In this document: one piece after another, positions 18,692-46,311 of the stretch
How the letters are laid out: the number at the start of each line of letters is the position of its first letter
Position numbering within the stretch: position 1 is the stretch's first letter
Virus record (IMG/VR): IMGVR_UViG_3300032285_002884
Source: a virus
Length of the DNA: 64,000 nt
Strand: one strand, 5' to 3'
Notes under the pieces: generated by a model
Told to the model about the DNA's origin: nothing
The model's input: only the letters and a program-made list of their open reading frames with translations
Databases searched by the model: none
Position numbers and translations under genes: made by a program

Positions 18692-18934
18692 TCAGACGAG
18701 ACCGGCAGCCAGTGCCTTGTAGCCTGCTGCGATGACCTTACGCGAAGCCGAGCCGAGACGATAGCGTGACGTCTTGCCTGACTTGTTGAGATAGATCGGA
18801 TAACCCTGCATACGAAGTGTCGAGACAGTCGCGGTCGGGTTGGCTACGTTGAAGCGAGAAGCGATCTGCTTCGATGTAAGCTCTTCACCGGACTTGAATG
18901 CTTCGAGTACGCGCTGTGTTGCAGAAGTCGTCAT
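18692..18934 (-). CDS. Winged-helix DNA-binding protein
   Basis: ELTSKQIASRFNVANPTATVSTLR..GY.I; own TTGACA-17-TAGTAT promoter. Confidence 0.7.
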   Translation of the reverse strand: MTTSATQRVLEAFKSGEELTSKQIASRFNVANPTATVSTLRMQGYPIYLNKSGKTSRYRLGSASRKVIAAGYKALAAGLV

Positions 18935-19022
18935 TAGTATGTTCTCCATTACGATTAAACTCGTGGGCTCTTCCCACTATCTAATACTACCATAGTTTAG
19001 ATTACTTGTCAACTAGAAAGAT

Positions 19023-19265: not shown

Positions 19266-19393
19266 TTGTTCATAAATATCGTCGTATGATGTTAAGGTGG
19301 CACGACGAGGATAGTAGACCAGAGTCTTTTCCACCTTTCGATTCTGGGCTCAACGAATTGGCAGTCGAGTACTCGAATCGTCTCATACAAACT

Positions 19394-19468
19394 TGGTGCA
19401 TCCTGCAGGGATTGAACCTACGACCTCTACGATGTCAACGTAGCGCTCTACCGCTAAGCTAAGGATGC
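19394..19468 (-). tRNA. tRNA-Val(GAC)
   Basis: CTACG-TTGACAT-CGTAG; CCA. Confidence 0.95.
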
Positions 19469-19477
19469 GTTGTCTAT

Positions 19478-19553
19478 TGGTGATCACTCTGGGACTCGAA
19501 CCCAGCACATGCAAGTTAAAAGCTTGCCGCTCTACCAACTGAGCTAAGTGATC
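19478..19553 (-). tRNA. tRNA-Lys(TTT)
   Basis: GCAAG-CTTTTAA-CTTGC; CCA. Confidence 0.96.
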
Positions 19554-19559
19554 GAGTTA

Positions 19560-20045
19560 GTTGGCATTTGTTCTGTTTGATGATCGATGATCAACCGCAT
19601 TCCTACCATCTCCGTAGGTGCTTCACCGGCAGTGCCACGCTGCCACGATTAGTTGTTTGGCTACTAGTGGGACTGGCATCCCTCGTTCGTGTCCCTGCCA
19701 GAGGACACAGATACCAGCGCGCTGGCCAGTACCGTCCAAATCCTATTGTCTCTGCAAAGATACTACATAGAATCGAATTTCGGAGTCGGGTGCTTCCCTT
19801 CCTTAGCCATTGATCGGGTTGTCTCAGGATGGCAAGATGGCCCTATCATCCGTAGTGCATGCGTCCATGCACGATACCCCGTGTAGTATCCGTGGAGAGA
19901 CAACAATTGTCTCTGCAAGGATACACCGCACCTGCAACAGTGCCTACGCTGCTCGTTGCAGAGCTTATAAGCCATAGCACCGCAGTCGTGTATCCGTGGA
20001 GAGACAACCGAAGTTGTCTTTCGTTTAACGATGTCAATCAGCCAT
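19560..20045 (-). ncRNA. Large structured leader RNA of the tRNA operon (about 490 nt)
   Basis: No credible ORF; duplicated long-range helices TTGTCTCT-CCAC-GGATAC / GTATC(C/T)-TTGC-AGAGACAA; many hairpins. Confidence 0.6.
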
Positions 20046-20060
20046 TCAGATTATATTAAG

Positions 20061-20089
20061 ATAGTACCATAGTCTGAATTATTTGTCAA
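20061..20089 (-). promoter_or_regulatory. sigma70-type early promoter of the tRNA operon
   Basis: TTGACA-17 nt-(TG)-TACTAT. Confidence 0.85.
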
Positions 20090-20091
20090 CT

Positions 20092-20134
20092 GAAAAGAGA
20101 AGGGGCGCCTCACTCTTTACTGTGGGCGCCCCTT
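20092..20134 (-). terminator. Intrinsic terminator (putative attenuator)
   Basis: AAGGGGCGCC-CAC..GTG-A-GGCGCCCCTT then CTCTTTTC. Confidence 0.75.
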
Positions 20135-20159
20135 GAACTTACTCTTCTGAGTCAAAGAT

Positions 20160-20267
20160 TCAAGATCGCCCTCGCGTTGGTTCGCGACCATTATCCCATG
20201 TCTGGGCAATGACGCAGAACGCGCTCGGCATGCTATACGGAAGAGGGTGTTTAACTGTTGTGTTCAT
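20160..20267 (-). CDS. Putative attenuator leader peptide, 35 aa, contains all 20 amino acids
   Basis: MNTTVKHPLPYSMPSAFCVIAQTWDNGREPTRGRS*; ATG 5 nt after TATAAATA (20280-20273), no SD. Confidence 0.7.
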   Translation of the reverse strand: MNTTVKHPLPYSMPSAFCVIAQTWDNGREPTRGRS

Positions 20268-20285
20268 ACTTTTATTTATACGACA

Positions 20286-20465
20286 TCAACTTAAAAAGTC
20301 GACGATGTTTCCATTTTTATCTACTGCTCGCACCTGCCACTTCTTAGAGGTCTTGAGCTCTTGCATGAGCTGACGGATGCGCTGTGAGTTACCCGCTGGT
20401 GTGTCGCTGTACGTACGCCAGATGCCCATAGGGTCACACGCCTGTATCTTTACGTAGTCTATCAT
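20286..20465 (-). CDS. Hypothetical protein (59 aa, below the ORF-track cutoff)
   Basis: MIDYVKIQACDPMGIWRTY..VRAVDKNGNIVDFLS; ATGA-coupled. Confidence 0.7.
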   Translation of the reverse strand: MIDYVKIQACDPMGIWRTYSDTPAGNSQRIRQLMQELKTSKKWQVRAVDKNGNIVDFLS

Positions 20466-20866
20466 CCCCTCCGTGAACGTGACCCCAGCCCAGTCTTATC
20501 CGACTCAGGACTGAAGTACATGGTAGGTCCCTTGTTGTACGCGACCGTGGTACGCTGAGCCTTCTCAAGGATGGCCTTCTGTACCTCGGGCTTCTCCTTG
20601 TGCAGGTTCTCCATGATGCCGCGCTTGAAGCCGTTGCCGACGCCGTTGGACAGCTCGTACTTGGTCTCGACGCGCAGGTCAGGCAGAGCGATGGTGTGCT
20701 TGCCCTTGAATGCTCGCTGCAAGTTACGCTGCTCGGGATGCAGGCCGCGGTCGCGCAGCCACTGATCGTGCTTAGCGGTAGACTCAGCGAGCTTCTTGCT
20801 CTTGGACGGCTTGCGCTTGGTCGAGCCGGTGGTCGTGAAGTATACTGGTGCTAGATGCATTGACAT
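20462..20866 (-). CDS. Hypothetical early protein
   Basis: MSMHLAPVYFTT...AYNKGP.MY; own sigma70 promoter. Confidence 0.75.
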   Translation of the reverse strand: MSMHLAPVYFTTTGSTKRKPSKSKKLAESTAKHDQWLRDRGLHPEQRNLQRAFKGKHTIALPDLRVETKYELSNGVGNGFKRGIMENLHKEKPEVQKAILEKAQRTTVAYNKGPTMYFSPESDKTGLGSRSRRG

Positions 20867-20925
20867 GGCTAAATCCTCATTATGATATATCATACCACAG
20901 GTTGGATTATTTGTCAACTAAAAAG

Positions 20926-21000
20926 TGGTAGTCCGAGAGGGGATCGAACCCCCGACCTTCTCCGTGTAAAGGAGCTGCGCTACCGCTGCGCCATCGGACC
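20926..21000 (-). tRNA. tRNA-Val(TAC)
   Basis: GCTCC-TTTACAC-GGAGA; CCA. Confidence 0.94.
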
Positions 21001-30427: not shown

Positions 30428-30480
30428 CATTTATTCCCCTCTATGGTACTATCTTAATATAATATAACAGGAGCCAATTG

Positions 30481-45940: not shown

Positions 45941-46152
45941 ACTGCGAAGTAGTCAAGTGGAACGACCGAAAGTTCTCAGTAGTCGAGAAGAGGACAGAAT
46001 GCATACTATCTGACTTTCCTAACCACAAAGATGCTAAGAACTACGCTAGGTTCTTAAACATGGGTGGTGGGTTTGACGGGTGGACTCCCTTCTTTATTTT
46101 GAAAAAAATTAATGTAGATGAGCTAGAAAATACGAGAGACTCGTATAAATAA
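45937..46152 (+). CDS. Hypothetical protein
   Basis: LNMGGGFDGWTP.F. Confidence 0.7.
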   Translation: MNCEVVKWNDRKFSVVEKRTECILSDFPNHKDAKNYARFLNMGGGFDGWTPFFILKKINVDELENTRDSYK

Positions 46153-46156
46153 CTTC

Positions 46157-46311
46157 ATGATTATATTTTTTGATCATCTCGACGTGTTTGTGTCTGCAGC
46201 ACAAGTGGCAAGCCGTAAGGATTGGAATTGACAGGTCGCCGTCTAGGTAGGTGGGGTTCCTCCTGTCCGCGTTGTTAAAGCAAGGGAAGCTCGAAAGGGC
46301 TTCCCTTTTTT
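46157..46311 (+). ncRNA. Putative late structured RNA with its own terminator
   Basis: TATAAATA 46144-51; GACAGG/CCTGTC and GGAAT/GTTCC pairings; terminator 46282-46311. Confidence 0.45.

Follow-up and report, generated by a model that had tools for sequence, protein, structure and literature searches.

Our analyses suggest, with moderate confidence, that the minus-strand module ahead of the tRNA operon of a T4-like uncultured phage is a ribosome-operated transcription attenuator, and that its short leader is matched to the set of tRNAs encoded behind it. The window that we analyzed, a stretch of 64,000 nucleotides, makes up the initial 64 kb of a viral record of 150.6 kb with an estimated completeness of 91%. 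The nearest cultured relative found for this T4-like phage was Caulobacter phage Cr30, in which one neighboring protein is 42% identical. The module, hereafter module A, contains the following features.

20280 to 20273, minus strand: T4-type late-promoter box, an exact match to TATAAATA, followed after 5 nt by an ATG (20267)
20267 to 20160, minus strand: leader ORF of 35 codons plus a UGA stop (20162 to 20160), without a Shine-Dalgarno sequence
20224 to 20174, minus strand: stable ORF-internal hairpin (transcript nt 44 to 94), from folding
20171 to 20124, minus strand: antiterminator hairpin, −22.1 kcal/mol, z −3.65
20134 to 20100, minus strand: intrinsic terminator with a singly bulged stem of 13 pairs, −25.3 kcal/mol, z −5.7
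20099 to 20092, minus strand: terminator U-tract, interrupted by C in the sequence

The original prediction had placed here a late box, an ATG 5 nt on that lacks a Shine-Dalgarno sequence, and a 35-codon ORF with all 20 amino acid types by codon 29, and all of its coordinates proved correct. Late promoters of the T4 type consist of an 8-bp TATA box located about one helical turn before the start (PMC2988020). The box ahead of the leader is an exact TATAAATA. This sequence occurs 17 times in the genome, compared to the ∼4 occurrences that we estimate from base composition, and copies are found upstream of the head scaffold gene, the head–tail adaptor gene and three homing endonuclease genes. 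The number and placement of the boxes fit a phage that uses T4-type late promoters. Three further boxes lie inside the tRNA array (18456, 17290 and 8341) and are ungated. Genome-wide, an ATG is found within 0 to 5 nt of 7 of the 17 boxes, which is above chance; these ATG-adjacent boxes could possibly give rise to leaderless late mRNAs or represent stop/start junctions that use the TAA inside the box. A second unit composed of a box, 5 nt, an ATG opening a 24-codon frame and a strong terminator is present on the plus strand at 46144 to 46311, after a helicase gene and not beside tRNAs. Module B (see below) likewise comes after a helicase-like gene in contig L035.

Because the ATG lies only 5 nt past TATAAATA, if transcription starts roughly one helical turn away from the center of the box, a leaderless or nearly leaderless mRNA would be expected, and we infer that transcription begins at or near the AUG and that the leader ORF is translated. 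Since the ORF has no Shine-Dalgarno sequence, its translation would hinge on the start site. Unpaired first nucleotides have been reported for leaderless mRNAs. The whole leader RNA folds with −63.2 kcal/mol (z −4.1), leaving the 5′ 20 nt unpaired, and in the full-length fold a CCCUC:GAGGG pairing (20247 to 20243 with 20173 to 20169) flanks the ORF-internal hairpin, which may act as a pause or timing hairpin. Leaderless mRNAs are frequent and well translated in alphaproteobacteria, including Caulobacter (PMC4117421).

The 20th amino acid type is reached at codon 29 of the 35-codon leader. It had been proposed that the frequency of such complete segments be computed, and the outcome was divided: across the six frames of the 150-kb genome, the leader is the sole segment that reaches all 20 types within 29 residues, but second-order Markov genomes of the same size and trinucleotide make-up contain a mean of 1.1 such segments. 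Open frames with the base content of the leader reach 20 types with a local P of 0.002, a value that is unimpressive for a feature that was selected by eye from a very large scan. The all-20 composition by itself is, thus, weak evidence. The peptide has none of the features of small proteins; an exact look-up in the protein collection was empty, and a search of representative proteins returned two unrelated repeat proteins and no homolog.

The pairing of the stop region with the 5′ arm of the terminator, which according to the original prediction would render the two hairpins mutually exclusive, was borne out. The 5′ strand of the antiterminator (20171 to 20159) consists of the last leader codons and the UGA; it is followed by an apical hairpin (20158 to 20138) and a 3′ strand (20137 to 20124), which overlaps the terminator at 20134 to 20124, that is, over 11 of the 13 nt of the terminator 5′ arm. 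Pairing of this arm with upstream RNA yields a gain of −15.4 kcal/mol (z −5.35), which was matched by 0 of 300 upstream shuffles and lies in the top 5% among 96 terminator-like hairpins from related DNA, for which the median is −4. The RNA wiring is clearly beyond chance. A simple terminator scan did not list the terminator at 20134 to 20092, probably owing to the bulge in its stem. The module, thus, combines two features of known attenuators, a short ORF directly before a terminator and an alternative hairpin that uses the terminator 5′ arm.

To model the ribosome, we imposed a 30-nt footprint on nascent RNA lacking the terminator 3′ arm. The antiterminator was present without a ribosome and with a ribosome at codons 1 to 28, and it was gone with the modeled ribosome at the stop codon. 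In minimum-energy folds of the full-length RNA with ribosome masks, the terminator won at every ribosome position. With the terminator favored in every equilibrium fold, the switch, if it operates, must be a kinetic one, and the two unpaired nucleotides in the terminator 5′ arm may provide a toehold for displacing the antiterminator.

A plausible sequence of events would be as follows. Late in infection, the TATAAATA box would start an RNA at or beside the AUG, and a ribosome would then read the 35 codons. With the ribosome at the UGA and the polymerase ∼60 nt ahead, the 5′ strand of the antiterminator would be covered, the terminator would fold and the late RNA would end at 20092. Were the ribosome absent, late or stalled at codons 1 to 28, the antiterminator would form first and sequester the terminator 5′ arm; the polymerase would then read through, past the sigma70 promoter, and transcribe the structured RNA together with the tRNA genes. 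Ungated early expression would come from the sigma70 promoters that follow the terminator. Because the leader contains all 20 amino acids, slow decoding of almost any codon class would raise late tRNA synthesis.

The surroundings of the module are organized as follows.

20917 to 20286, minus strand: upstream early unit with a promoter (20917 to 20889), a 151-aa ORF and a 59-aa ORF, from promoter and ORF scans
20089 to 20061 and 20078 to 20050, minus strand: two overlapping sigma70-type promoters, just after the terminator
20042 to 19560, minus strand: conserved structured RNA of ∼480 nt, between the promoters and the first tRNA
19553 to 5462, minus strand: 25 tRNA genes for all 20 amino acids with small genes interspersed, from a tRNA scan
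18949 to 18695, minus strand: intact wHTH gene of the window itself, within the array

The 25 same-strand tRNAs for 20 amino acids and the sigma70 promoter past the terminator are, hence, present as had been described. The sigma70 elements consist of TTGACA-17-TACTAT with a TG motif and of a TATAAT box 7 nt before the start of the conserved RNA, and the promoters are kept in the relatives L004 and L005. Copies of the early promoter at 20925 to 20893 (minus strand, 85% over 33 nt) and 30441 to 30463 (plus strand, 23 nt exact) suggest a shared promoter cassette. The structured RNA harbors a 17-nt 5′ motif (20042 to 20026) and a 20-nt hairpin (20019 to 20000) that recurs without any change in 21 viral contigs; it also contains long helices that are repeated and a single hypervariable hairpin. 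A search of Rfam with 19400 to 20950 gave no match, whether to leader families, the T-box or structured RNAs, at the gathering score or at E values up to 10. The terminator scan listed no strong same-strand terminator between the start of the array and 5456 to 5427. Two tRNAs are located upstream of the leader module, and the stop of the upstream unit lies 18 nt before the leader ATG. Two observations concern the interior of the array. Following the stop of the wHTH gene, the segment 18694 to 18662 (minus strand) contains 7 nt that can pair with the initial 7 nt of the tRNA that comes next (Lys-CTT), a pairing that would make a hairpin across the 5′ end of this tRNA. At 19280 to 19388 (plus strand), between two tRNA genes and on the strand opposite to them, there is a match to the Rhizobiales sRNA family Atu_At1, which scores 62.1 compared to a gathering score of 60.

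Relatives of the phage differ in what they carry at this position. L004, which has 94% identity on the neighboring protein, keeps the module with six base differences that all fall in codons 3 to 12; these amount to 2 replacements and 2 to 3 silent changes, while codons 13 to 35 and the terminator are identical. This substitution pattern is too sparse to test coding. In L005 and L006 (73% identity on the neighboring protein) the module is absent, with the preceding 59-codon gene running directly into the promoter, and the module is, therefore, dispensable in some relatives. In some other relatives a late box lies directly ahead of the conserved RNA. Most others have in this slot a wHTH gene of ∼90 codons, often with its own late box, followed in order by a hairpin, a terminator, a sigma70 promoter and then the same conserved RNA and tRNAs. 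No cultured relative with the module was found; the matches were tRNA-sized only, apart from Cr30, which has no tRNA array at the locus. A degenerate-codon search for the leader and a metagenome scan yielded nothing beyond copies of the A and B variants already known.

In nascent folds of the relatives with a wHTH gene in the slot, the last codons and stop of this gene pair with the terminator 5′ arm in eight of nine cases, so that the whole wHTH gene may be the sensor ORF of a switch of the same type. Examples of these pairings are located at L079:538 to 612 (minus strand), L024:1048 to 1123 and L010:4738 to 4811. The antiterminator helix of this group is 96% paired across the alignment and the terminator helix shows four compensatory pairs; the compensatory pairing anticipated for the antiterminator was not observed, as its changes are one-sided, with no compensatory pairs. 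The slot wHTH genes lack W and often C or F. Derivation of the leader from a wHTH gene was considered and rejected, since there is no similarity in any frame and the window keeps its intact wHTH gene at 18695 to 18949.

The layout of module A recurs in modules that share no sequence with it. Module B, found in L035, L107 and L108, is composed of a box, 5 nt, an ATG and 36 codons specifying 19 amino acid types, with F absent; its UGA lies in a hairpin strand that overlaps the terminator, and downstream there are a promoter, the conserved RNA and a tRNA. The competing hairpin of module B is marginal (z about −2). Homology between modules A and B was rejected, as they have nothing in common beyond promoter hexamers. 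We then searched viral contigs with an architecture pattern (box, N5, ATG, 150 to 180 nt, T-run, TTGACA) that set no condition on an open frame, a stop position or tRNAs. The search returned 58 new loci besides modules A and B, most of which are chance matches. Three contain a 31- to 41-codon frame and a strong terminator, and two of these three, chosen from the 58 matches by frame length and terminator strength, head tRNA arrays (modules C and D). A fifth leader, E, comes from the same viral record as D.

L112:7956 to 8054, minus strand: leader C, 32 codons with 18 amino acid types, lacking F and H
L146:3666 to 3761: leader D, 31 codons with 17 amino acid types, lacking C, H and Y
L170:2223 to 2312: leader E, 29 codons, with a Shine-Dalgarno sequence, same viral record as L146

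In modules C and D the UGA again lies in the 5′ strand of a terminator-overlapping hairpin (z −5.5 and −5.3, respectively). Modules A to D, thus, all have the arrangement box-N5-ATG, 31 to 36 codons, and a distance of 59 to 66 nt from the stop to the U-run, and after the terminators of B, C and D there are a TTGACA promoter and, downstream, tRNAs. The peptide sequences of A to D differ; it is the architecture and the place ahead of tRNA arrays that are kept. Leader E contains a copy of the 3′ arm of its own terminator, the classical attenuator design. Scanning 1 Mb of related loci for diverse mini-ORFs yielded many chance 19-type frames, none of them in a promoter and terminator context. At the far end of the tRNA array of L146 (11048 to 11452), ARAGORN calls a permuted tmRNA. 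The proposal of a trp/his-type attenuator wiring is, hence, supported, in that this wiring recurs in three sequence-unrelated modules that head tRNA arrays (B, C and D). The expectation that relatives would show both the layout and compositional completeness held for the layout in modules B, C and D but not for completeness: the full set of 20 types is confined to the leader in the window, and leader content tracks the array instead.

The clearest view of this relationship comes from the L146 record, which has two tRNA blocks, one behind leader D and the other behind leader E. The D block encodes tRNAs for N, M, T, L, W, G, D, V, Q, P, R and I, and all twelve amino acids are present in leader D; C, H and Y, which are absent from leader D, have no tRNA in its block. 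The E block encodes tRNAs for M, E, R, F, K, C, I, H and G, all nine of which are present in leader E, and the amino acids missing from leader E (L, A, V, D, P, Q and W) are those of the D block. The residues are split: the E block goes with C, H and F, and the D block with W, L, V, D, P and Q. More generally, in modules A, C, D and E the leader includes each amino acid for which the array behind it has a tRNA, although contig ends truncate the arrays of modules B and C; through this amino acid coverage, the leader codons relate to the regulated product, as they do in attenuators. Compared to open frames of the same base content, the probabilities of such coverage are 0.002 for A, 0.027 for C, 0.037 for D and 0.081 for E, and combining C to E by Fisher's method gave a P of 0.004.

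Codon usage shows a related trend. Array tRNAs read 70% of the codons of leader D, compared to 43% in the long genes of the phage, and 61% of those of leader E, compared to 32% (P of 0.003 and 0.0015, respectively; Fisher for C to E, 6 × 10⁻⁵), with the match being weak in A and C. In the window the match is 91% versus 80%, which is not significant relative to phage codon usage (P 0.07); the array there already reads most codons. The excess of type diversity has P values of 0.03 for B, 0.08 for C and 0.24 for D (Fisher, 0.02). If leaders cover the tRNAs encoded behind them, an array that serves all 20 amino acids is expected to be headed by an all-20 leader, as is seen in the window.

Our initial judgment, pure chance combined with a plain operon-end terminator, was overturned by the comparative data from relatives. 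Several points do speak against an attenuator, namely the imperfect U-tract, the ungated boxes, the two upstream tRNAs and the absence of the module in L005 and L006. A related explanation is that the module is an ordinary insulating terminator, which ends the upstream unit after an untranslated stretch, and that the ORF and the competing hairpin have no regulatory role. In keeping with this, the ORF is without a Shine-Dalgarno sequence and was not recorded by the gene callers of the protein collection that we searched, a hairpin, terminator and promoter behind a normal gene are a common layout in relatives, the terminator dominates all equilibrium folds, and the module is dispensable in L005 and L006. 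Yet an untranslated RNA would form the antiterminator first, which would defeat insulation. Moreover, the frame, its length, the ATG spacing and an in-frame UGA in the hairpin strand are kept in four unrelated sequences, where we estimate the chance of an open frame ending at that place as ∼0.07 each, and the content of the leaders matches the tRNA sets. We, therefore, consider simple insulation improbable. Still more improbable, in our assessment, is a stand-alone small late product unrelated to the tRNA genes, be it a 35-aa protein or a 175-nt RNA with its own terminator. The peptide has neither homologs nor small-protein features, and among A to D the peptide sequence is unconserved while the architecture and the position at a tRNA array are conserved; these findings outweigh the good fold of the leader RNA (z −4.1), the invariance of its 3′ two-thirds in L004 and the existence of the second late unit of box, 5 nt, ATG and terminator (46144 to 46311) away from tRNAs.

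A different question is what an attenuator at this site would sense. It could be a real translation-coupled attenuator that senses overall ribosome progress, with the all-20 content being an unselected by-product of a young, random-like peptide of balanced base composition. Random genomes contain ∼1.1 all-20 segments per 150 kb, leaders B, C and D are incomplete (19, 18 and 17 types) with a modest excess of diversity (Fisher 0.02), and the wHTH genes are wired alike without W and often without C or F, all of which would be explained by sensing of progress only. This explanation, which we deem unlikely, though the likeliest of the alternatives, does not account for the fact that the four testable leaders miss no amino acid having a tRNA in the array behind, nor for the way in which two leaders from one phage split C, H and F versus W, L and V like their tRNA blocks, nor for the codon match (P 6 × 10⁻⁵). 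An attenuator matched to the tRNA set, thus, remains the reading that we favor. A bolder form of it is possible, and we put it forward tentatively: the leaderless "pangram" would sense the whole decoding apparatus, such that depletion of any tRNA, for instance by a host anticodon nuclease, would lead to readthrough into a full replacement set, closing a feedback loop between failing translation and the supply of tRNAs, and the leader would be one of a wider, undescribed class of leaders fitted to phage tRNA blocks. Cleavage of tRNAs by host nucleases as the trigger is pure conjecture.

The enterobacterial trpL, hisL, leuL, thrL and multivalent ilv attenuators resemble the window module in having a short ORF, an intrinsic terminator and an antiterminator that includes the terminator 5′ arm, and in the logic proposed for it, whereby a ribosome at the stop favors termination and an upstream stall favors readthrough. 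The distance from the stop to the terminator in trp is ∼45 to 65 nt, which is of the same order as in the window module. Unlike the enterobacterial leaders, the window leader has no run of a single amino acid but contains each type once or a few times. The module would also regulate tRNAs rather than biosynthetic enzymes, it resides in a phage with a T4-type late box and probably a leaderless start, and in nascent folds its untranslated state gives the antiterminator and not a 1:2 hairpin. In T-box elements, too, readthrough at paired terminator and antiterminator structures depends on the status of tRNA, but they bind one uncharged tRNA directly and have no ORF, whereas the window contains no specifier or T-box motif. 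Also comparable is bmrB-bmrCD of Bacillus subtilis, a ribosome-stalling attenuator that senses translation inhibitors (PMC4191407). There, any delay of the ribosome while it reads a short upstream ORF refolds the RNA and permits readthrough, and the window module would likewise be a broad sensor rather than one specific for a single amino acid. Elements of the bmrB type answer antibiotics and control resistance genes, whereas the output of the window module would be tRNA supply; furthermore, in modules of the window type, unlike those of the bmrB type, the leader content tracks the tRNA set.

Our full-text literature searches turned up no paper in which a leader peptide controls the tRNA genes of a phage. 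The proposed switch would work like the trp, his, ilv and bmrB attenuators, with a new output, tRNA genes, and a new kind of leader. The usual explanations for the tRNA genes of phages are codon usage or a role as replacements when host enzymes destroy tRNAs, and, to our knowledge, little has been established about how their expression is controlled. The module is self-contained and spans ∼190 nt, and so can be tested directly although the phage is uncultured. If the proposed switch is real, the supply of tRNAs in such phages would answer actual decoding trouble, and attenuation, a textbook mechanism for amino acid operons, would extend to tRNA genes and to viruses.
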